Origin: Candidatus Wukongarchaeum yapensis
GTDB lineage: Archaea > Asgardarchaeota > Wukongarchaeia > Wukongarchaeales > Wukongarchaeaceae
Assembly: GCA_016840425.1 (NCBI GenBank)
Contig: JAEOSI010000060.1
Coordinates: 1-10,350 of the forward strand
Length of the DNA stretch: 10,350 nt
Direction: 5' to 3'
Positions 1-10,350 of this stretch are shown piece by piece. A program made the position numbers and the translations under genes. Within the stretch, counting starts at the first letter, position 1; the number at the start of each line of letters is the position of its first letter. Below the pieces are notes generated by a model. That model did no database searches, was not told the DNA's origin, and worked only from the letters and a program-made list of their open reading frames with translations.

Positions 1-323
1 CCATGTTTTGTCTCAGTTATTATCATTTTTTGTCTCATACGAATAATAGAGCGTGCTTCACGCAAAATAACTTCAACATGACTTGGAGGCTTATCAATCA
101 ACTTGGTAATACTACAAGCAAACTCTGAGGGAGAAACCTTTGTTAAATCGATAACGCGTCCCCCAGCCGTTGAAACAATTTTAGAAGTAACAACAAGAAC
201 ATCCCCCTCCTTAAACCCTCCAACATTTTTCTCAGCAGAACTAATTAAAATCTCAGAAACATCATCACCAATCTTTACAATCGGTGTAGGTAAAGGAAAT
301 AAACCTATCTCCATCATCTTCAT
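1..323 (-). CDS. cofE: Coenzyme F420-0:L-glutamate ligase, N-terminal part (truncated by the left window edge; not in the ORF track)
   Basis: Manual translation from ATG at 323 (alternative ATGs at 317 and 314): MKMMEIGLFPLPTPIVKIGDDVSEILISSAEKNVGGFKEGDVLVVTSKIVSTAGGRVIDLTKVSPSEFACSITKLIDKPPSHVEVILREARSIIRMRQKMIITETKHG. This carries the CofE hallmarks P-x-(V/I)-x-x-GDD, GD(V/I)LVV(T/A)SKIVS-x-A-x-GR and ITET(K/R)HG. An AGGGTTG purine tract precedes the start. Confidence 0.9.
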   Translation of the reverse strand, partial: MKMMEIGLFPLPTPIVKIGDDVSEILISSAEKNVGGFKEGDVLVVTSKIVSTAGGRVIDLTKVSPSEFACSITKLIDKPPSHVEVILREARSIIRMRQKMIITETKH

Positions 324-620
324 CAACCCTAAAAACCGAAAAACCAGCCCCTATTTAAAAACTATAACATTATTTATAATGGGATAAATAACAAATCCTT
401 ACCAAAAAACGACTGAAAACATCAAAAAATGCTAAAAAATGAAGATTAAGAAAGAATAGTCAGATTAAATTAAAGATATTAAGAAGCTTTTAACTATTTT
501 AAAAGATTAAAAAAGAGAAAGAAAAGCTAAGTGCTTTTTTTTGCTATTTTCTTGATTTTTCTACTTACACTCAGCTTTAAAGCAGTCATTATCATTATTT
601 AAGATGTTTTAATTTTTGTT

Positions 621-1610
621 TTAGCCGAATTTGGGCTTGATGCTTTCACCAAAGATCTCTAAGGCTCTCTTCTTTTTCACACCTATCGGACTGCCTACCA
701 CGAACTGTGTTACGCCTGCCTTTTCCAGCGCTTTTATCCGGTCTATGCAGTCGTCCGCTTTTCCAGCCACTGCAAAAGCGTTAATCATATCTTCAGTTAC
801 ACTTCCGAAAGCCGTGCCGAAATCACCTTTTGCAATTGCATCCTTTATTTTATCTGCATCGCTTACGGCTATACCATGGTGTTCTAAGACGGGAGGCGGC
901 GAACCAGCTACTATAAACGCAACCACGGATGAAGCTTCTTTTCTTGCAGCTGCCGCATCATCATCTACTGAGAAACACGTATAACCTACAACATCGACAT
1001 CGCTTAAAGATTTGCCAGCAGCTTCGCAACCTTCTTTTATATTAGGCAAAGCTACATCAAAATCTTTCGGACTTGAAGCATTAATCAAAACGCCCTCGCC
1101 ATATTGGGCTGCTGTTTTAAGCATTTTTGGTCCCTGAGCACCTATATAAATCGGGATACTTCTTTTGGTTTTAAAGTTAAATTTCGCGCCAGAAATCTCG
1201 AAAACTTGACCCTTCAGTTTAGACTTTTCGTTGTTAAGGAGCGTGCGGATTATTTGAACCGCTTCTTTAACCGCAGTTAGGGGTTTTGTCCAAGGAATAC
1301 CTAACTGTGCTAGGGTGGCCTTATCACCTGCTCCAATACCGAAGACAGCTCTACCGTCTGAAACTTCATCTATAGAAGCTATTGCGGCAGCCGTCCAGCA
1401 AGGATTGCTAGTATAAGGGTTAGTTACACCAGTACCGAGAAGCAGTTTTGAAGTTTGAGCGGCGATAGCGCCTAAGGAAACATACACGTTACGGTTGTTA
1501 TAGTGATCAGTCACCCAACAGAATTCAAAACCTCTTTGCTCTGCATCAACCGCAGTTCCTACTAATTTCTCAATTTTAGTTGCAGGCAATAACTCTATTC
1601 CAAATTTCAT
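621..1610 (-). CDS. mer: F420-dependent 5,10-methylene-tetrahydromethanopterin reductase (luciferase-like TIM barrel)
   Basis: 329 aa with the Mer motifs MKFGIE, W(V/I)[47 protein letters not shown] and [21 protein letters not shown] lies 10 nt upstream. Confidence 0.95.
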
Positions 1611-1620
1611 AGCGATTTTT

Positions 1621-1626
1621 CCTCCT
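1621..1626 (-). promoter_or_regulatory. Shine-Dalgarno site of mer
   Basis: cctcct on the + strand is AGGAGG on the - strand, 10 nt before the ATG at 1610. Confidence 0.75.
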
Positions 1627-1849
1627 TATTTAACAAGTTTTAAAATTTTTAGAAAAATATTTTCAGCATTTTCTAATTTGCGCGCCTTTTTTTAATTTTT
1701 TCGATTTTTACGCGAGAATTTAACACTTTATTTTTTCAAAAAAAGAGTTTTCAGCGACTATTTAGGCAAATAAGGATTATTAAAGGTTAAAAATGTTTCG
1801 GCAAAAAATAGGTTATAGAAGGGAAAATCGAACAAAAAAATAAACATTT

Positions 1850-1951
1850 TTAAGATTCGAATAGTTCAAGAAGTTCTTTTTCGTATTTTTCTTTCAGTTC
1901 TTCAAGTTTTATTTTCACTTCAGGATTGTTCGGCGTTTTTAAACAGGTCAA
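1850..1951 (-). CDS. Candidate 33-aa small protein or pseudogene remnant
   Basis: TTG start, translation (M)TCLKTPNNPEVKIKLEELKEKYEKELLELFES-TAA. It has an amphipathic E/K/L helix pattern and purine-rich codons like the real genes here. No clear RBS and no ATG start. Confidence 0.3.
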   Translation of the reverse strand: MTCLKTPNNPEVKIKLEELKEKYEKELLELFES

Positions 1952-2139
1952 AAGATTTACAGCGTTTATTCAAACCTAAAAAAACGGGGTATTTTTCAGT
2001 TAATTGATTTAAAAATAACTCTATAAATTGAGAATAGGTTTTTCTAAAAACGCCAAAAATCAACTTTAATTTGGGATAAATGATTATGTGAATTGTTCTG
2101 CCCTTAAGGAAGGGTTTTCTTATATCTTAATTATTAAAA

Positions 2140-4401
2140 TTATTTTAGATATGCAGTCTTTTGATAGGGCTTTATGCTTTTTTTAGTAAGTAGAATAAAT
2201 GCTAAGATAAATAAGAGGGCAAAAGTCCCTGAAATTGCTGTCCCGATTAACCCTATCGTTCCTTCCTGAATTGCAAAAAATATAGACGTGGCTATTAATA
2301 CTGTCGCTAGAATCAGGGTAAGAAGCGGGACGTACTTTGGCATTTCAATCTTAGAACGGCGGAAAAATATCTCTATCGGTTTTTTCTGTATGAATATTCT
2401 TTCAACAGTTTTTCCTAGCTTAACTTCCTCGCTCCCTACCTTTAGACTAAATTCTATATTGAGGGGGAAGTCTCCGAGTGCTAAAGGTTTAGCCTGGAAC
2501 TTTATCTCCTTTTTTTTCCTCTCTAATATCTCCTTTATTCTTATTTTTAAGCCGGTTGGGATTATTTTTAAAGCTGTGCATGCAGGCATGATTTTAATAA
2601 CCCCTTCAGAAACTATTTCTGGATTGATTTTTTCCATTTCTAAAGCTTCTGGAGGTTTTTTAATGGAAATTCCGATCTCGTAATCTCCTTTTATGGCCAT
2701 CCTCTGCCAATAAATTATTTCGCAGTGTTCCTTAATCATCTTCCTCAATTTTTCAGCAATAGCTTCTAATTCAGCTCCTTCCTCCAGCATACTAGGAGTA
2801 GTAATAACCTCTTCCTCCTCTTCTTTAACCTTTTCAGCGGCCATAATCTCCTCTTCAGGGACTTCCCTCTCAACTATTTCTTCTTCTCCTATGGTCTCCA
2901 TAACCTCCTCTTTTTCAACAACTTCTATGGCCTCCTCCACAGGAGCTTCTTCCAGTTCCTCTTCTTCCCCTATTTCTAATATTTCCTCTTTTGGTTGCCA
3001 AACAATTTTCTCTTCTCTCATCATTGATAGGGCTTTGGTAAGATCTTTTGATAGTGTTTTCATTTGCTCTTTAAGCATATCAGTATCCTCAGAAGAGGAA
3101 AGAAGGGGCGTAATTATGCGAGGAGTAGTTTCAGGGATAGAAGTTTCAATTTCCCCAAGAGAAGGTTCTGCACCTATTTTTATGGAGACAAAAACATTGC
3201 TTATCGGATACTCTATGCTTAAAACGTGTTCAAGCTCAATAGCCTCTTCTCCCACATAGTAATCTTTTTGAATCTTCTCCATTTCAGGAAGCATCGTCTC
3301 GATTTTTGGATAACCTACCAACGTAGGCATAACTACCCTAGGTCTATTTTCCCCAGAAAAACCTGCTTTTGTGATATCAGCTCCTATATCCAATATAATC
3401 GGGACTTCAAAAGTTTCAGCTATCTTTTCAGTTTCAGGATCAGGAGACGTGCTCATAATCGTTTGAAACCTTTTCTCTTCAATTATCGAAACGCCCTTCT
3501 CCTCAAATGCTTTCTTTGTTATCCATAACCTGTTTGATGTTTTAATGGAAGTAAGAATGCTTGCGCCAACCCACTCTCCATGTTGAGATTCTGCGGGTGC
3601 AAGAATTTTAGCCTTGTAATTTTTAGGCAAAAGCCTTTTTAATTCCTTTAAAAGCCTCTCCTTCAAACCTGGTAAAGCACTTATTTCCCCAGAAACTACG
3701 ACTGATTCCACGATTTCTTTACGTAGATCATCATCACATCTATCCACTGCTTCCACTATCGCTTCAGGCAGCGATTTTTCGTCGATTTCACCTATAGAGG
3801 GGGTGAAAAGGATTTCGGGTGCCATAAATCGTTCAGCATTAAGCGTTATTATCTCCCCAAAAGGAGTCTCATAAACCTTTTCTATAGCCTCGGGTTTTTC
3901 CGCAATTTTAACTTCTTCATCAAAGTCTAAAGATACATAACAAAACTTTTCCTTAATATCTTTCAAAAATCTCTTTTCTGGACCCGTTGTAAATAACATA
4001 CCTTTTTCGCCCAGAAGTTTTTCAAGAGTTTTCGTAATTGTTTTACCACCAAGTTTAAGAGAAACCATGGCTTCAACTATCGGCCTTGCATCTTTAATAG
4101 GCACAATTTCAGTAAAGTCTTCCCCTATATTAACGATAATACCTGTAACTTTCCCTGTACTAAAAAGCGCAAGAACGTTTTTATCCAGCAACATTACTGC
4201 AGGAACATTTATTCTTTCAAAACAAAACCTTACCAAGGTTTCTCTTTCGCTTTTCGTAATCATCACGGAGTCTGGGAAAACGAGGGGATGAAGAGTAGAT
4301 TCCACACGAAAGGTTTCTTGAAGAATATAGTTGATCATTTGCTCTAAAGCATCCCAATTTTTAATAGCTCTAACAGGGAAAACCTTACTTATCGCCATCA
4401 C
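2140..4401 (-). CDS. Circularly permuted, membrane-anchored actin-related protein (actin fold + acidic stalk + predicted beta-sandwich + 2 TM helices)
   Basis: aa ~7-312 match actin ~68-375: NWDALEQM~NWDDMEKI, FERINVPA~FETFNVPA, DIKEKFCYVSLDF~DIKEKLCYVALDF, ERFMAPEILFTP~ERFRCPETLFQP, WITKKAFEEKGVSIIEEKRF~[20 protein letters not shown]. aa 334-401 match actin ~7-72: IILDIGADITKAGFSGENRPRVVMPTLVG~[29 protein letters not shown], and QKDYYVGEEA...LSIEYPI~QKDSYVGDEA...LTLKYPI. Hydrophobic segments occur at aa ~691-710 and ~715-738. Start is GTG 4401 or ATG 4398, after GAGGGTTGA. Confidence 0.9.
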   Translation of the reverse strand: MMAISKVFPVRAIKNWDALEQMINYILQETFRVESTLHPLVFPDSVMITKSERETLVRFCFERINVPAVMLLDKNVLALFSTGKVTGIIVNIGEDFTEIVPIKDARPIVEAMVSLKLGGKTITKTLEKLLGEKGMLFTTGPEKRFLKDIKEKFCYVSLDFDEEVKIAEKPEAIEKVYETPFGEIITLNAERFMAPEILFTPSIGEIDEKSLPEAIVEAVDRCDDDLRKEIVESVVVSGEISALPGLKERLLKELKRLLPKNYKAKILAPAESQHGEWVGASILTSIKTSNRLWITKKAFEEKGVSIIEEKRFQTIMSTSPDPETEKIAETFEVPIILDIGADITKAGFSGENRPRVVMPTLVGYPKIETMLPEMEKIQKDYYVGEEAIELEHVLSIEYPISNVFVSIKIGAEPSLGEIETSIPETTPRIITPLLSSSEDTDMLKEQMKTLSKDLTKALSMMREEKIVWQPKEEILEIGEEEELEEAPVEEAIEVVEKEEVMETIGEEEIVEREVPEEEIMAAEKVKEEEEEVITTPSMLEEGAELEAIAEKLRKMIKEHCEIIYWQRMAIKGDYEIGISIKKPPEALEMEKINPEIVSEGVIKIMPACTALKIIPTGLKIRIKEILERKKKEIKFQAKPLALGDFPLNIEFSLKVGSEEVKLGKTVERIFIQKKPIEIFFRRSKIEMPKYVPLLTLILATVLIATSIFFAIQEGTIGLIGTAISGTFALLFILAFILLTKKSIKPYQKTAYLK

Positions 4402-4560
4402 TCAACCCTCAAAATAGGAGTAGGTGAACTCCTCAATTCCTTAATCATTTCAAATAAACACTAAACTAAAATCTATGCCTTGGCTAAACCCTACCTAAAC
4501 TATTGTTTATCTAAGTCTCCTTTATTAATCTTTTTAAGTTTATTTACCTTACAAAACCTT

Positions 4561-4600
4561 AAAAAAATCCACAAAATAAAATTAGGAGAAAGAAGAAGTT
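4561..4600 (-). terminator. Possible archaeal oligo-T terminator downstream of nadC
   Basis: Minus strand reads ...cttcttctttctcctaattttattttgtggattttttt, a pyrimidine/T-rich tract about 80-120 nt after the nadC stop. Confidence 0.3.
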
Positions 4601-4678
4601 TGTGATCTACCAGTTTATCGCCTTTAAAACTTATTATCAATTTTTTAAAAACCAGTTTCTAAGTTTTTTCATATGGAA

Positions 4679-5527
4679 TTAAACGGGTTCAAGTTTTAGG
4701 GAGAAATCAAGGGCTGGGGCTGAATGTGTAATACACCCCATAGAAATCACGTCGACACCCGTTTTCCCAAACTCAGCAATATTTTCGAGAGTTACGTTAC
4801 CAGAAACTTCAATAATCACTTTATCACGCAAATTTTCTTGGCTGATAAGCTTCAAAGTTTCCCTTATTTTTTCTGGTGGAAAATTGTCAAGCATTACTAT
4901 ATCTGCTCCCGCCTTAATCGCGGTTAAAGCATCTTCAGAACTCTCTACTTCTACTTCTACTTTTTTCACAAAACTTATCCTTTTTTTTACTTCTCCAACC
5001 GCTTTTGCTACGTCGCCTATAATGGCTAAATGGTTTGTTTTAATCAAAACACAGTCATCAAGCCTATATCTGTGTGTATCTCCCCCTCCATTTTCTACCG
5101 CTTTTTTTTCCATAAAATGCATATCTGGTAACGTTTTCCTTGTGGCAGCTACGCGGGTATTTAAACCTAATTTTTTTAATTCCGAAACTGCTAGGAAGGT
5201 TAAAGTAGCAATGCCAGACAGATGCATTAAAAGATTTAAAGCGACACGCTCTCCTAAAAGGATAGATTTTGCAAGTCCCTCAAGCTCCATTACTTTCTCC
5301 TCTGAAACAACCTTATCTCCATCAAACTTTAAAACACGCACCTTAACACCCAATAACTCAAACAGTCTTGAGGCATATCTTACCCCAGATAAAACCCCCT
5401 CCGACTTAGAAATGATATAACCTCGAGTTTTTTCGCCTTCAGAAATCACGATATCCGACGTTAAATCGCAAAAACCCACATCTTCCTCTAAAAAACGAAG
5501 AAGCAACTGATCAATTATGGGGTTCAT
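4679..5527 (-). CDS. nadC: Nicotinate-nucleotide diphosphorylase (carboxylating), i.e. quinolinate phosphoribosyltransferase
   Basis: 282 aa with L-x-EDVG-x-x-DLTS, LLGERVALN, ATRKT-x-P, HRYRLDDCVLIKTNH, VEVEV, ADIVMLDNF, IEVSGNVT and GVDVISMG-x-ITHSAPALDFSL. AGGAGA RBS at 5537-5542. Confidence 0.96.
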   Translation of the reverse strand: MNPIIDQLLLRFLEEDVGFCDLTSDIVISEGEKTRGYIISKSEGVLSGVRYASRLFELLGVKVRVLKFDGDKVVSEEKVMELEGLAKSILLGERVALNLLMHLSGIATLTFLAVSELKKLGLNTRVAATRKTLPDMHFMEKKAVENGGGDTHRYRLDDCVLIKTNHLAIIGDVAKAVGEVKKRISFVKKVEVEVESSEDALTAIKAGADIVMLDNFPPEKIRETLKLISQENLRDKVIIEVSGNVTLENIAEFGKTGVDVISMGCITHSAPALDFSLKLEPV

Positions 5528-5589
5528 AGTCCATAATCTCCTTAAGCTTAGTTAAAAGGGTGTTAAGAACTTGGAACAAACATAATGTG

Positions 5590-5641
5590 TAAGAGACTCT
5601 TCTATCGCTTTAATATAAGAGACTCCTCTATTGGTTTAATA
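5590..5641. repeat. 26-bp tandem direct repeat (2 copies, 23/26 identical) between nadA and nadC
   Basis: taagagactcttctatcgctttaata (5590-5615) followed immediately by taagagactcctctattggtttaata (5616-5641). Confidence 0.9.
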
Positions 5642-5649
5642 CATGTTTT

Positions 5650-6582
5650 TTAGCTGCTTAGTTTTAACATTTTTTTGATCGCTTTTTCTACCTTTTCCGC
5701 TATTTCTTCAGGAACTGAAATGATTTTGTTTTCTTTTTCTAGAACTTCTACTATCTTTTCTAAGTTGATTCTTTTCATTTGGCGGCATATTGCTGTAGAT
5801 AAGGCGGGAATAACCTTTTTTCCGGGTAATGTATACTGTAATCTTTCAATAAGCCCGATTTCGGTAGCAATTATAACGGTTTCGCTATCTGTTTCTTTGG
5901 CAAATTTTATGAGTTGGGCGGTACTTCCAATAAAGTCTGCAATTTGTTGAAGTTCAGGATCACATTCAGGATGAACTGCAAGAACAGAATTTTCATAACT
6001 ATCTTTTAAATCTAATACCCTATCAATTTCAAACGTTTTATGAACGTAACAATAACCTTTCTTGGGATAGTTTATCACTTTCACGCCTGACTTTTGAGCG
6101 GCAAACCATCCTAAATTAGCATCTGGGCCAAAAAGAACCTTGTTATCTTTAGCAACCGCTTTAGCGATTTTAGGCGCATTAGAGCTTGTACAAATCACAT
6201 CACACTCAGCTTTAGTCTCGGCAAGAGTGTTAATGTAAGCAACAAAAGGTATGTTTGGATGCTCTTCTTTAGCGCGAATTACTTCTTTTGGAGGCAGTTG
6301 AGCAGCCATGGGACAACGTGCACTTAAATCCGGTAAAAGAACGCTTTTATCAGGGTTCAGAATGCTCGCGGTTTCGGCCATGAAATCAACGCCACAAAAG
6401 CATATAATATCCGCATCATGAGCGTTTTGAGCAGTTCTTGCAAGTTCCAAGCTATCTCCCACAAAATCTCCCACTTGCTGAACCTCGAAAGGTTGATAGT
6501 TGTGAGCCAAAATGATGGCGTTTTTCTCCTCTTTCAACTGATAAATTTTCTCTTGAAGCTTCTGTATCTGTAAAGTTTGCAT
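5650..6582 (-). CDS. nadA: Quinolinate synthase A ([4Fe-4S])
   Basis: 310 aa with ILAHNYQ, GDSLELA, FCGVDFMAETA, CPMA, AYINT, CTSSNA, FGPDANLG, CYVH, HPEC, GSTAQL, TEIGL and C-x-x-MKRI. The three cluster-ligating cysteines are present. Confidence 0.96.
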   Translation of the reverse strand: MQTLQIQKLQEKIYQLKEEKNAIILAHNYQPFEVQQVGDFVGDSLELARTAQNAHDADIICFCGVDFMAETASILNPDKSVLLPDLSARCPMAAQLPPKEVIRAKEEHPNIPFVAYINTLAETKAECDVICTSSNAPKIAKAVAKDNKVLFGPDANLGWFAAQKSGVKVINYPKKGYCYVHKTFEIDRVLDLKDSYENSVLAVHPECDPELQQIADFIGSTAQLIKFAKETDSETVIIATEIGLIERLQYTLPGKKVIPALSTAICRQMKRINLEKIVEVLEKENKIISVPEEIAEKVEKAIKKMLKLSS

Positions 6583-6709
6583 GGTAGAAACCTCTGGACA
6601 TCCTGTTAACTTTTATAGTAACTTTTAAAACAAGTTAGGGCTAACATTAATATCCGACTAAAAAATAAAAATATCACCATTTATAGATATCTTTCGCTTT
6701 AAAAGTTTA

Positions 6710-6715
6710 AGGAGG
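6710..6715 (+). promoter_or_regulatory. Shine-Dalgarno site of the FrhB/FpoF-like gene
   Basis: AGGAGG 8 nt upstream of the ATG at 6724. Confidence 0.75.
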
Positions 6716-6723
6716 ATTACTAA

Positions 6724-7785
6724 ATGAGTGATGTAGACGAAGGATTCGATGTATTAAAAGAATTCGTTATAGATAGAGGTACATGCTGTGGTTGTGGCTT
6801 GTGTGTCACTATGTGCACCAAAGGCTTAATTGCTTTTGACGGAATCCCAAAACTTGTAGGTGAATGCACGGAATGCGGAAGGTGTAACTGGAATTGTCCA
6901 AGACTCCCTTCAGCAGAAACTGGCGAGGTCATCCCTTCAGTGCCCAAGGCTGAAAACGCTACAGAAGACGAATTAATCGGGCCATATAATGAACTATTGG
7001 GCGGAGAAGCTGTTAAGAACGAGATTTTAGAGCGGTGTCAGGATGGTGGTGTAGTTACGGCGATCTTGTGTGCTTGCTTAGAGAGCGGGTATATTGATGG
7101 GGCTATTGTTACTGGGATTGATCCTGGACATCCTTGGAAGGCTAAACCGATGGTGGCTACAACAACGGATGAGATAATAGCTGCAGCAGGCACGAAATAC
7201 CTATACCCTGCAGAGCTCTCCATGATCAAAAAGGCCATAAAAGAGTCAAAGCTTGAAAAAATCGCCGTTGTTACAAGACCTTGTGGCGCCCAAGCTGTCA
7301 GGAAAATGCAAAATTCCGATAAAAAAGCCATTCAAAGAATGGGCGAAAAGGTCAAACTACTTTTAGGTCTTTTCTGCATGGAAAGCTTTTCAGACGATTT
7401 TCTGCAAAAAGAAGCTGCAGAAAAGAGAGGAATAGCTTTAGAAGACATAAAAAAAGTTAACATTAAAAAAGACTTCATAATAACTCCAAAAGCCGAAGAA
7501 AACGTTGTTATACCGATGGACGAAGCTTCCTCTTACATCAGAGACGGCTGCCACTTTTGCGCAGATTTTGCTTCAGAGTATGCTGATGTTAGTTGCGGAG
7601 CCGTAGGAACAAAAGAAGGTTCATCCACAATAATAGTACGCAATAATACAGGCAAAGAAGCTGTAGAACTTGCAACCAGCAACGGATGGCTCAGCACAAG
7701 AACCGTTTCAGAAAAAGCCCTAAAAGTACCACAAGCCCTATCTAAACGCAAAAAAGAACATGCAAAACCCATACCTTCAAGATAA
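6724..7785 (+). CDS. Coenzyme F420 hydrogenase/dehydrogenase beta-subunit family protein with N-terminal 2x[4Fe-4S] ferredoxin domain (FpoF/FqoF-like architecture)
   Basis: N-terminal CxxCxxCxxxC twice (CCGCGLCVTMC and CTECGRCNWNCP). FrhB-family motifs: QDGGVVTAIL, AAGTKY, VVTRPC, LGLFCMESF and CHFCADF-x-S-x-x-ADVSCGAVG. Confidence 0.9.
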   Translation: MSDVDEGFDVLKEFVIDRGTCCGCGLCVTMCTKGLIAFDGIPKLVGECTECGRCNWNCPRLPSAETGEVIPSVPKAENATEDELIGPYNELLGGEAVKNEILERCQDGGVVTAILCACLESGYIDGAIVTGIDPGHPWKAKPMVATTTDEIIAAAGTKYLYPAELSMIKKAIKESKLEKIAVVTRPCGAQAVRKMQNSDKKAIQRMGEKVKLLLGLFCMESFSDDFLQKEAAEKRGIALEDIKKVNIKKDFIITPKAEENVVIPMDEASSYIRDGCHFCADFASEYADVSCGAVGTKEGSSTIIVRNNTGKEAVELATSNGWLSTRTVSEKALKVPQALSKRKKEHAKPIPSR

Positions 7786-8310
7786 AAAAATAAACAAAAT
7801 AAACTCCACACACAAAAATCGACTAAAACATGCTAAATTTTTATTTTATCCATGTGGGCGAGAAGGCTCCATACAGAAGGATAGAGATGAAAACCCGCAG
7901 GCCTTAGATATGCCGGTTTTCTATACCCTAATAAAACAGCCTTTTAGGCTACATGCTCAAGAGCAGGACTGTCCTATGCCTGGATCATGTATAAATGGAA
8001 GTGAACCAGCTCAAAACTCCCCCAATGGACAGTGAACTTTTAGAGATTCAGCATGCGAGAGAAGAAGTTCCCCGCAATATCTGAGATTAGTTCACGAAAT
8101 ATCGTTGCAAAAGAGCTTATACTTCCACAAAAAAGTAGAAAGCGATGAAATGCAACTAAAAACAAAACGCTTTCCTACTTCCCTATTTTTCGCCCCCTCT
8201 AAGCCCATCCTACCTTCATTCACCATTTCGCTAATGGAAAGTGGGAAATGTTTTTTTATAAAAGAAAACATAAAAAAGCATGTTTTTTGAAGATGAGGAT
8301 TGTGTGAAAA

Positions 8311-10020
8311 TTGGGTAACAAAAGGGAGAAAAAAAAGGAAGAGGAATTAGTTGAAGAAGAGGGGGAAGAGGAGGAAGAGGAGGAAAGGGAAGAAGAAGTA
8401 GAGGGAGAGCTTGAGGAAGAAGAGGAATTAGTTGAAGAAGAGGAGGAAGAGGAGGAAAGGGAAGAAGAAGTAGAGGGAGAGCTTGAGGAAGAGGAACCTC
8501 TTGTCTGGGAAGAAACGGTATGGAAAACCACGCCTGTTAAGATTGGGGAAGAAATCGAGGAAAAAGAAGAAGGAGAAGAGGAGGTAGAGGTAGGAATACC
8601 AACAGAAGAGGAAATAACGATAAAAGTAGAGTCCCCAACACCCATAGAAGAAGAGGAGTTAGAAGCTTTAATAGAGGAAGAAGAGTTAGAGGAAGAGGAA
8701 GTTGGTGGAGAGTTAGAAGAAAAAATAGAGAAGATATTGGAGAAGCAGGTAGAGCAAGTTAGTGAAGAAGTAGAGGAAGAGGAGTTACTAGAGGAGGAGG
8801 AAGAAGAAGAGGAGGAAGAAGAAGAGGAGGAAGAAGAAGAGGAGGAAGAGGAGATTGGTGAAGAAGTAGAGGAAGAGGAGTTACTAGAAGAGCGGGAGAT
8901 AGAGGACAAACTTTCAAAAATTGGCATATCTTATGAAAAAGATGTCATGGAAACAGTAAAACCAAAACCTGAAGACATCTTTGAAGAAATACTTAATGAC
9001 CAAAAAAGCATTTATGAAAAAGTAATAGAAACGATAAAAGTGCCATTACCCCTCTTTTTGCCAATTTTTATCTTGATAGTATACGGCTTATTTTCAAGCA
9101 CGATCAATTTTTACGGTAATTCAAAAGACTGGGATCTACTATTAGAGGATTGGGTAACTCCATTTTTAATATCCGCCGCCATAACCTCTATGTGGGGTTT
9201 TATCATCATAGGTTCAAGAACAGCAAGGAATTTTTATTATGAGATTAACGACCAGGTTAACGCGCCGAAAAAAGCTTTTCAAAAGCTTTTCTTAAAAGAG
9301 GTTAAAAAATTTTTAAAAGATTGGAAAATCCCCATATTAGGCCTCTTTATTGCCCTAGGCGCCGTTTTGCTTGTAAGATCCAGTAGCAGCTGGTACTCCT
9401 CAAAAGTTGCCACAAACACCCACTACGTCGTTTTAGGTCTTTCGTTCTGGTTCCTCAGTATTGGTCTTGGGATACTTCTTAGAATGGTGTCTTTTACAAG
9501 ATCAATGGGGGGAGTAAATTTCCACGTAAACTTTTTCCACCCAGATGAAAATGCAGGTCTCCTACCTTTAGGGAACCTAAGCCTAAAAATTGCGTCCATG
9601 ATCGCCATAATTTTCAGCCTCCTAACAGCAGGCCTCGTCGGGATTTTAGATAAAAGCGGGAACGATGCTAATAAACTCATCTTATGGAGTTTCCCCCTAG
9701 CCTGTGTTATTTTATCTGTTTTTCTTTTCATTTCCCCCCTATTTAGCTCTCACGATCTTATTGTAAAAGAAAAAAAGGCGGAAATGTTAAATTGGAAAGG
9801 TAGTTACGGAAAACTTGCAAAAGAATTCTTCCTCTACCTAACCGAACACAAAACCATAGATCTACAGACAGGGATAGGCATTCAAGTCCTAAGTAACATA
9901 TATCGGGAGATAAAAAAGGTGCCTAATTGGCCTTTTAACACAAAAATTATCATGAAATTAACTTTGATTGCGCTACTCCCCCTTCTAACATTCCTATTTA
10001 CAAAAGAAATAATCATTTAA
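8311..10020 (+). CDS. Uncharacterised polytopic membrane protein with a ~200-aa poly-glutamate N-terminal region
   Basis: 569 aa from a TTG start (in-frame TGA at 8305-8307 upstream; first ATG is at 8947). aa 1-201 are about 56% Glu by hand count. About 7 hydrophobic segments follow from aa ~245, with FHPDENAGLLPLG and PNWPF motifs. Confidence 0.8.
   Translation: MGNKREKKKEEELVEEEGEEEEEEEREEEVEGELEEEEELVEEEEEEEEREEEVEGELEEEEPLVWEETVWKTTPVKIGEEIEEKEEGEEEVEVGIPTEEEITIKVESPTPIEEEELEALIEEEELEEEEVGGELEEKIEKILEKQVEQVSEEVEEEELLEEEEEEEEEEEEEEEEEEEEEIGEEVEEEELLEEREIEDKLSKIGISYEKDVMETVKPKPEDIFEEILNDQKSIYEKVIETIKVPLPLFLPIFILIVYGLFSSTINFYGNSKDWDLLLEDWVTPFLISAAITSMWGFIIIGSRTARNFYYEINDQVNAPKKAFQKLFLKEVKKFLKDWKIPILGLFIALGAVLLVRSSSSWYSSKVATNTHYVVLGLSFWFLSIGLGILLRMVSFTRSMGGVNFHVNFFHPDENAGLLPLGNLSLKIASMIAIIFSLLTAGLVGILDKSGNDANKLILWSFPLACVILSVFLFISPLFSSHDLIVKEKKAEMLNWKGSYGKLAKEFFLYLTEHKTIDLQTGIGIQVLSNIYREIKKVPNWPFNTKIIMKLTLIALLPLLTFLFTKEIII
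8338..8490 (+). repeat. Intragenic tandem duplication (81-bp and 72-bp units)
   Basis: EEELVEEEGEEEEEEEREEEVEGELEE (8338-8418) and EEELVEEEEEEEEREEEVEGELEE (8419-8490) are identical at DNA level apart from a 9-nt indel. Confidence 0.9.
8762..8888 (+). repeat. 31-bp direct repeats flanking a (GAGGAGGAAGAAGAA)x3 minisatellite within a run of 21 Glu codons
   Basis: gtgaagaagtagaggaagaggagttactaga occurs at 8762-8792 and 8858-8888. The 15-mer is repeated three times at 8794-8838. Confidence 0.88.
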
Positions 10021-10229
10021 AGATAAACTTTTAGATTAAAAAAACCTATTCTAAAAACTAGAAAAAAACATCACTATTTCTCTATAAATATGACATAAAC
10101 AAAAGACTAATATCTCACCTAAAAAAGTCTTTACGTGAGGTTTTCAAAGCGATAAAATCTACGTAAAATTAATATTTGAGACAATCAAGCAAAAAAGAAA
10201 CCAACTAAAAAAGAAACTTGAAAATATTC

Positions 10230-10236
10230 GAGGTGA
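10230..10236 (+). promoter_or_regulatory. Shine-Dalgarno site of mch
   Basis: GAGGTGA (canonical archaeal SD) 7 nt before the ATG at 10244. Confidence 0.75.
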
Positions 10237-10243
10237 AAAATTA

Positions 10244-10350
10244 ATGGTTAGCGTAAACACTCAAGCAACCAAATTAATAACCGAATGCATGATGAAAGAT
10301 CTAGAGCGGATAAATTGTCGAGCAACCAAGTGGAGCAATGGTGCAACTTG
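10244..10350 (+). CDS. mch: Methenyltetrahydromethanopterin cyclohydrolase, N-terminus (truncated by the right window edge; not in the ORF track)
   Basis: MVSVNTQATKLITECMMKDLERINCRATKWSNGAT resembles the Mch N-terminal pattern M(V/L)SVN-x-x-A-x-K(I/L)...(L/E)NG(A/S)T(V/I)ID. It has a strong SD and lies near mer. Only 35 codons are visible. Confidence 0.8.
   Translation, partial: MVSVNTQATKLITECMMKDLERINCRATKWSNGAT

Follow-up and report, generated by a model that had tools for sequence, protein, structure and literature searches.

A circularly permuted actin-family protein from an Asgard archaeon with a predicted membrane anchor drawn from a portable sandwich-hairpin module

Canonical actins and actin-related proteins (Arps) are soluble. 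An actin-like (ASKHA) fold is found at the cytoplasmic membrane face in FtsA, MreB, PilM-PilN and GspL/EpsL, of which GspL is bitopic with an actin-like cytoplasmic domain, and FtsA and MreB use amphipathic helices. In full-text literature searches we came across no account of an actin that is circularly permuted or integral to the membrane, whether from Asgard archaea or from other organisms, and none is mentioned in recent publications on the actin of Asgard archaea or on strain HC1. Cultured Asgard archaea build dynamic, actin-filled protrusions (PMC13716822; bioRxiv 10.1101/2025.02.26.640444), and the Asgard actin literature that we examined describes no protein as linking filaments to the membrane. 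Here we describe a gene from Candidatus Wukongarchaeum yapensis (GenBank assembly GCA_016840425.1) that lies within a 10,350-nucleotide stretch of DNA (contig JAEOSI010000060.1, positions 1 to 10,350 of the forward strand; hereafter the window). With a probability of roughly 0.9, we read its product as a membrane-integral, cytoplasm-facing protein with a permuted actin fold, held on a flexible acidic tether by a recruited, portable membrane module.

The longest open reading frame (ORF) in the window, 2140..4401 (-), has 753 codons. Because all orthologues begin at the corresponding methionine (MA/MV), the start codon is probably the ATG at 4398, giving a gene of 752 codons plus a stop codon at 2140-2142 that runs over 2140..4398 (-) and encodes, in order, a permuted actin, a linker, a beta sandwich and a transmembrane (TM) hairpin. 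All parts of the gene given below are on this strand. We refer to it as type A, as the same genome carries a paralogue, type B, described further on. The product scored 288.8 bits with the Pfam actin profile PF00022, for which the cut-off is 27 (E=7e-86), aa 12-311 aligning with profile positions 69-409; profile positions ~5-70 correspond to aa 335-404. The closest solved actin was that of the cultured Hodarchaeales strain HC1 (9wc4; phmmer E=1.4e-88). Comparison by phmmer with solved actins placed aa 13-312 (3466..4365) on actin residues 76-375 without gaps, a block that comprises part of subdomain 1, subdomains 3 and 4 and the native C-terminus. The segment equivalent to actin 8-75, with the phosphate-1 loop, subdomain 2 and the D-loop, is encoded after the rest of the fold, at aa 335-404 (3190..3399); phmmer aligned aa 335-404 with residues 3-70 of the actin 8thx_A, and aa 319-405 with residues 16-103 of HC1 actin (independent E-value 2.9e-15). 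The gap between the two HMMER stretches, aa 313-334 (3400..3465), is kept in the orthologues and forms a new linker, through which the native C-terminus of actin now runs into its native N-terminus. All four actin subdomains and the D-loop are present in this head, and its new termini lie at approximately residue 70-75, at the sensor-loop/subdomain 2 boundary. By these alignments the actin part is circularly permuted, and the collinear fold order of PF00022 is broken. After re-ordering, which served identity comparison only, the type A head is 38-40% identical to the canonical actin of the host. Remnants of the breakpoint motif were found both at the N-terminus of type A and at the end of its N-like block, which fits duplication followed by truncation as the origin of the permutation.

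The nucleotide pocket has diverged as well. Mapped without gaps onto host actin, which keeps every residue concerned, type A carries the substitutions G15D, Q137K, D154N, D157E, G158D, H161E and G302E, while D11, K18, G156 and E214 are kept. Types A and B have Q137K, D154N, V159F and H161E in common, and neither keeps G15 or G158; S14A and G302E are additional in type A. The residue set for ATP binding and hydrolysis in PF00022 (G15, Q137, D154, G156-D157-G158, H161 and G302) is not intact, and this loss of catalytic and phosphate-loop residues suggests that the actin head is probably without ATPase activity. Judged by sequence, the protein belongs to the actin family yet misses two of its defining features, collinear order and catalytic residues.

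The first-pass annotation of the window had read the region 2140-3198, which encodes aa 402-753 plus the stop codon, as the end of an actin fold followed by a short helix, an acidic spacer, a beta sandwich and a TM hairpin. Translation, AlphaFold2 (AF2) models and alignments bore out this order, and the motifs on which it was based fall at aa 441 (helix), at aa 574, 601, 633 and 645 (strands), at aa 681 (RRSK) and at aa 740 (KKSIKPYQK). AF2 models aa 405-545 without structure (predicted local distance difference test, pLDDT, mostly <35) except for a helix at aa 438-463. Ahead of this helix is a Pro/Ser/Thr/Glu-rich spacer (3091..3189, aa 405-437; pLDDT <30), the least constrained part of the protein, with a ratio of nonsynonymous to synonymous substitution rates (dN/dS) of ~1.1; dN/dS values per region, here and below, compare the window gene with the P0005 gene only. 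Beyond the helix is a disordered Glu-rich linker whose length varies among strains (2767..3012, aa 464-545; 43% acidic, pLDDT <35). The low-complexity, Glu-rich character claimed for aa ~470-545 was readily apparent, with Glu at 33 of the 76 residues and 43% of them acidic, compared with 14-18% in other soluble parts. In-frame indels distinguish the linkers of orthologues: P0004 and P0005 differ here by an in-frame deletion and duplication, and a mangrove metagenome contig (run X13) has a 33-bp in-frame deletion at 2772-2806. The segment aa 405-545 behaves as a flexible acidic linker, which may act as a stalk keeping the head off the membrane. Of the helix that had been claimed directly after the actin, the motif is in place at aa 441, and the helix itself is an amphipathic, low-confidence prediction (3013..3090, aa 438-463; full-length AF2 with DSSP, pLDDT 26-45, and alignment). 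It is conserved in type A orthologues (dN/dS 0.22) and absent from type B, and it might pack into the cleft of the same head or engage a partner. A WH2-like reading of helix 441-461 was dropped, as the hydrophobic spacing, compared by eye with the motif, does not fit.

The membrane-proximal part that follows, a leading helix and a beta sandwich (2344..2766, aa 546-686), was recognized by AF2, by fold matches and by BLASTP to P0009, a protein described below. An AF2 model of aa 545-753 made with a 20-sequence family alignment (A3) reached a mean pLDDT of 84.2 and a predicted template modelling score (pTM) of 0.70, with pLDDT ~85 in the sandwich. In this model the leading helix is followed by ~10 strands that form the sandwich, then by the two long helices and finally by a short strand at aa 747-751 (203-207 in the domain model). 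The last strand is predicted to pair with the sandwich and, if real, would hold the sandwich against the surface of the membrane both before and after the hairpin. Foldseek matched the beta domain to solved sandwiches at E ~1e-5, and VIA gave Z scores of 8.0-9.2 (root-mean-square deviation ~3 A, 95-113 residues aligned) with Integrator, protein 4.2, transglutaminase, complement macroglobulin (MG) and amylopullulanase domains, the last of these archaeal. Further fold matches were to bacterial macroglobulin MG, NEW3 and PapD/MSP-like domains. These searches support the immunoglobulin-like (Ig-like) fold that had been proposed for this domain, and no one subfamily (MG, transglutaminase-C, CARDB/NEW3 or PapD/MSP) stands out.

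Hydropathy scans (Kyte-Doolittle, 19-residue means) and approximate insertion free energies (dG, on a position-independent Hessa-type scale) found hydrophobic stretches at two places only, and the dG of every other window was at least +2. TM helix 1 (2269..2331, aa 691-711) reaches a mean hydropathy of 2.6 with a dG of -3.4 kcal/mol and is preceded by a patch of +4 charge; TM helix 2 (2173..2259, aa 715-743) reaches 2.3 with a dG of -2.0 kcal/mol. AF2 builds both as helices at pLDDT ~85-92. Within helix 2, the Ser-Gly pair S724 and G725 is invariant in a 7-sequence alignment. The basic C-terminal tail (2143..2172, aa 744-753), delimited from alignments and the domain model, holds the last strand and a K-P motif (K744 and P745) that is invariant in the same alignment, its Pro being nearly invariant across the 20-sequence family alignment. 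Charges are +4/-1 in the 12 residues before helix 1, +4/0 in the 12 that follow helix 2 and 0/-1 (one Glu) in the three-residue loop, and this pattern of flanks and loop recurs across 20 family members. By the positive-inside rule, basic flanks mark the cytoplasmic side, and a two-helix hairpin returns the chain to the side from which it came. A scan of the full protein found no hydrophobic N-terminal segment; since the N-terminus is instead actin sequence, the protein is read as having no signal peptide. That the actin, linker and sandwich face the cytoplasm is well supported, because the positive-inside pattern is found in both gene and family, and because heads of cytoplasmic type (Ras-like GTPase, TIR and TPR) are borne by the same module elsewhere. 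The earlier claims of paired hydrophobic helices with basic flanks, of a missing signal peptide and of a cytoplasmic actin domain are all supported. An opposite or non-spanning topology, with an extracellular beta domain or a monotopic wedge, seems improbable to us. It would sit well with the type A inter-helix loop of only ~3 residues and with the Gly/Ser-rich, weakly hydrophobic character of helix 1 elsewhere in the family (dG +1.6 to +5.5), which suits a re-entrant helix; yet it would require export of ~690 residues with a folded actin in a protein lacking a signal peptide, and it is at odds with the basic flanks on both sides of an acidic loop, with type A helices of 21-29 residues that both have negative dG and with the cytoplasmic domain types of the fused heads.

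The sandwich and hairpin are not peculiar to the actin fusion. A profile of this module, searched against 1.84 billion representative proteins, returned 15 clusters only, and no Pfam or NCBIfam model matches it. In a stand-alone form of ~320-340 aa, the module is found in 13 genomes of another Asgard family (in a tally that pooled three families, 88 genomes; profile E down to 1e-62), laid out as an N-terminal TM helix, a basic patch, a disordered linker, the sandwich and the hairpin (P0009, P0011-P0013). By BLASTP, the module of the window gene matched stand-alone P0009 at E=1e-16 (205 aa) and a Ras fusion, P0010, at E=2e-12. Among the module loci of other Asgard genomes (L010-L018; proteins P0009-P0021), we found fusions to a Ras/Roc small GTPase (P0010), TPR (P0014), TIR (P0019) and SPFH/Band 7 with a zinc ribbon (P0021), as well as one with leucine-rich repeats (LRRs) after the module (P0016) and one with a large N-terminal region that has its own TM segment (P0020). 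Three motifs, W-x-R-M in the first strand, I-Q-x-K-P-I before the hairpin and K-P after helix 2, show no variation in the 7-sequence alignment. The 20-sequence alignment keeps them for the most part, with conservation of at least 90% at P71, I127, Q128 and P201. These matches indicate that the sandwich and hairpin are a portable, unnamed membrane module that predates the actin fusion.

In the AlphaFold DB, Foldseek found structural neighbours of the module in the C-terminal parts of TIR, CHAT, caspase, vWA, effector-associated-domain and STAS proteins (E 7e-9 to 1e-6, TM-score by query 0.36-0.45, 8-18% identity), many of the matches including both helices. The ESM Atlas held two Promethearchaeota clusters with TM-scores of 0.63-0.64 and TIR_2 rows with 0.45-0.47, and a feature search of the Atlas returned only the module family's own Asgard clusters, with scores <0.9. 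A search of a 2020 eLife article about conflict systems (PMC7159879) found no description of the module. We take the predicted likeness to TIR, CHAT and caspase proteins as a lead only. It does bear on a non-cytoskeletal alternative, in which the protein would be a membrane signalling or effector module and its dead actin head a sensor or decoy, for example for viral or cellular actin-targeting factors. The TIR, Ras/Roc, TPR, SPFH and LRR heads of the module's relatives point the same way as these database neighbours, and the loss of catalytic residues fits a head that only binds. We nevertheless think this alternative unlikely: within one Asgard family the stand-alone module is well conserved from genus to genus, with the E values given above, unlike fast-turnover defence genes, and neither actin-fusion locus has defence-island neighbours, no PADLOC search having been made.

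We found four orthologues of the window gene, in assemblies from Logan, NCBI (a Candidatus Hodarchaeota metagenome-assembled genome), ENA and JGI, that are 70-97% identical to it over aa 400-753 and all have the same length and the full architecture. Matches to the gene's 31-mers come from ~20 runs in 14 studies, which sampled marine sediment, marsh and mangrove. A contig of another sample spans 1900-4312 with 3 differences and further contigs bridge the permutation junction and the linker; every junction is bridged by contigs from other samples. In comparison with P0005, the blocks of the actin fold have dN/dS values of 0.13-0.21, the sandwich has a value of 0.38 and the hairpin one of 0.22. 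The type B paralogue lies in the same genome at C97:1-1713(-), its C-terminal end apparently continuing at C22:4-504(+), and has full-length orthologues of 715-716 aa (P0006 and P0007). Its parts follow in the order of permuted actin, charged disordered linker, sandwich and hairpin, and after re-ordering it is 47% identical to type A and 56-57% identical to the host's canonical actin. A query spanning the permutation junction matched end to end at four places in 400 genomes of the phylum, namely types A and B in the host and in the sole other genome of its genus, and the remaining matches were N-termini of ordinary ~380-aa actins. Neither in these 400 Asgard genomes nor in homologue searches did we find a permuted actin without the sandwich-hairpin module. 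The fusion is restricted to a single genus, which is uncultured. Because the breakpoint and derived residues are common to types A and B, we infer a single origin of the permuted actin, followed by duplication.

These data also speak to whether the gene is an assembly artefact, a pseudogene or a functionless chance fusion, which we find hardly credible. The host genome is a fragmented metagenome bin in 277 contigs and the fusion occurs in one genus only, as such an origin would have it. Opposed to this are the full-length architecture in assemblies of four sources, the bridging contigs from other samples and the spread over the runs and studies just listed, the 753-codon open frame with dN/dS <0.4 in its folded parts, and the 47%-identical paralogue with the same layout. 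Homologues lacking the stalk and TM part, which the first-pass annotation had named as the sign of a recent chance fusion, were not seen, as every permuted actin found carries the module.

The actin toolkit of the host, of the usual Asgard kind, consists of one canonical actin (contig C185), a profilin (C175) and several gelsolin-domain proteins (C23, C148). The canonical actin gene (G000:C185:3758-4840) runs off the contig end, and an actin C-terminal fragment at C43:5-169 is probably its missing end. We compared filament-contact residues of the permuted heads, using contact sets from established structural knowledge of canonical actin and host actin as the single reference sequence. Type A is identical to host actin at 12 of 36 pointed-face residues, 17 of 44 barbed-face residues and 2 of 11 plug residues, compared with 144 of 353 (41%) overall. 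For type B the corresponding values were 28/36 at the pointed face, 19/44 at the barbed face and 56% overall, from small counts and one reference. This pattern suggests type B as the copy that would dock on host filaments, at barbed ends, should either of them do so; the partner of type A may be something else, possibly type B.

Such a partnership leads to a further alternative, in which types A and B pair or self-assemble at the inner membrane face, as a short oligomer or in an Arp2/3-like heterodimer, and thereby shape the membrane or seed or cap host actin, type B giving the actin-compatible face and type A serving as the divergent partner. The two types are found together in each of the genus's two genomes and in one and the same sediment sample, they have derived substitutions in common, and type B keeps its pointed face (28/36 against 56% overall) and not its barbed face. 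Set against this are the smallness of the contact counts and their single reference actin, the retention of neither face in type A and the lack of linkage between the type A and type B genes, and we would give this arrangement a low probability.

Our preferred reading of the role, held tentatively and at somewhat less than even odds, is a membrane attachment or organizing site for the actin system that works by binding and not by ATP-driven polymerization. In the mechanism that we envisage, the two C-terminal helices would pass through the membrane as a hairpin, leaving ~3 residues outside, and the Ig-like sandwich would sit on the inner membrane face, held by the strand that runs into helix 1 and by the back-folded C-terminal tail. 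From the sandwich, the disordered acidic linker of ~140 residues (aa 405-545) would lead to the permuted actin, departing from it at the subdomain 1/2 boundary, at approximately actin residue 70-75, and would keep the head ~10-30 nm off the membrane. Because residues for ATP hydrolysis have been lost, the head is more likely a binding surface than a dynamic polymerizing ATPase, and it could bind host actin, the paralogue or actin-binding proteins, thereby providing a membrane attachment point for the host actin system. The tether would have been recruited from a pre-existing module by a fusion that occurred once in the genus, with duplication then giving the fast-evolving type A and type B. 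A bolder version, in which actin and membrane are coupled directly and without adaptors, the type B head sitting on barbed ends via its pointed face with type A as an Arp-like partner in a membrane-embedded seed, cap or tether, strikes us as quite unlikely.

Several observations weigh against the protein as we read it or against its proposed role. AF2 run with the 7-sequence alignment leaves the actin part at pLDDT <50, so that the case for the permuted fold is made from sequence alignment alone. The first-pass annotation had suggested that the protein could anchor, cap or seed actin filaments, and for type A this is weakened by the loss of ATPase residues. The filament-contact residues of type A are conserved no better than the protein average, and since neither contact face exceeds that average, its co-assembly with host actin is doubtful. 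There are no cytoskeletal genes beside the type A locus, the context of which is uninformative, and when the genes around types A and B were compared with those around the stand-alone module and the Ras fusion, no common or cytoskeletal neighbour was found. Evidence of expression is weak, coming from one RNA library with small contigs that cover only 2595-2836 and 3533-3970, which is too little for a claim of transcription. Finally, the structural neighbours of the module sit in settings more typical of conflict or signalling systems.

The genes around type A are metabolic, encoding NadA, NadC, an FrhB-like protein, a luciferase-like oxidoreductase and CofE, and their synteny is kept in the orthologue's contig. 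Upstream of the gene, 4402-4678 is non-coding and AT-rich. On its 3' side, ~530 bp of AT-rich sequence (1611-2139; 29% GC) hold neither an Rfam match nor an ORF that reaches 60 aa, and the downstream position in L040, the orthologous contig, is occupied instead by a fragment of a Ras-family gene (12737-12910). Scans of the gene region for Rfam families and tandem repeats returned no match. Elsewhere in the window, a 569-aa ORF at 8311-10020 (+) has no Pfam match, and purine and GC skew are extreme at 8500-9000; its syntenic counterpart is a 551-aa unannotated ORF at L040:4790-6445.

As a predicted membrane-integral member of the actin family, the protein would be a direct candidate for the link between filaments and membrane in Asgard cells, or for a membrane-bound regulator of that link. 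If the direct coupling considered above were true, it would be an independently evolved archaeal answer to the membrane-cytoskeleton link that underlies Asgard protrusions. The natural permutation would also imply that the actin fold tolerates re-wiring at the sensor-loop/subdomain 2 boundary, and an unnamed module that tethers many cytoplasmic signalling domains merits description as a family of its own.

Among known systems, the head is like Asgard and eukaryotic actin (PF00022, lokiactin and HC1 actin), with clear membership by sequence, and it differs from canonical actin in its permuted order, in its replaced catalytic and phosphate-loop residues and in ~350 extra C-terminal residues that end in a membrane hairpin. 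The bacterial proteins FtsA, MreB, PilM and GspL are distant ASKHA members outside PF00022 (MreB and PilM profiles matched the type B paralogues at E ~0.01-0.03 only); they use other anchors, have no Ig-like domain and no acidic stalk, and are not permuted in this way. In idea, the protein resembles Arp2/3 and end cappers, actin folds that do not treadmill and that template or cap filaments, and the pointed face of type B would fit docking at barbed ends. Unlike Arp2/3, it has no Arp-specific insertions and is predicted to be membrane-integral. To the C-terminal regions of bacterial TIR, CHAT, caspase, vWA and STAS proteins the likeness is structural, and a sequence link by HMMER extends only to the TIR, Ras, TPR, SPFH and LRR fusions of the module. 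With the stand-alone module proteins, the type A protein has in common the linker before the sandwich, the W-x-R-M and I-Q-x-K-P-I motifs, the hairpin and the K-P tail; in those proteins an N-terminal TM helix and a basic patch take the place of the actin head.

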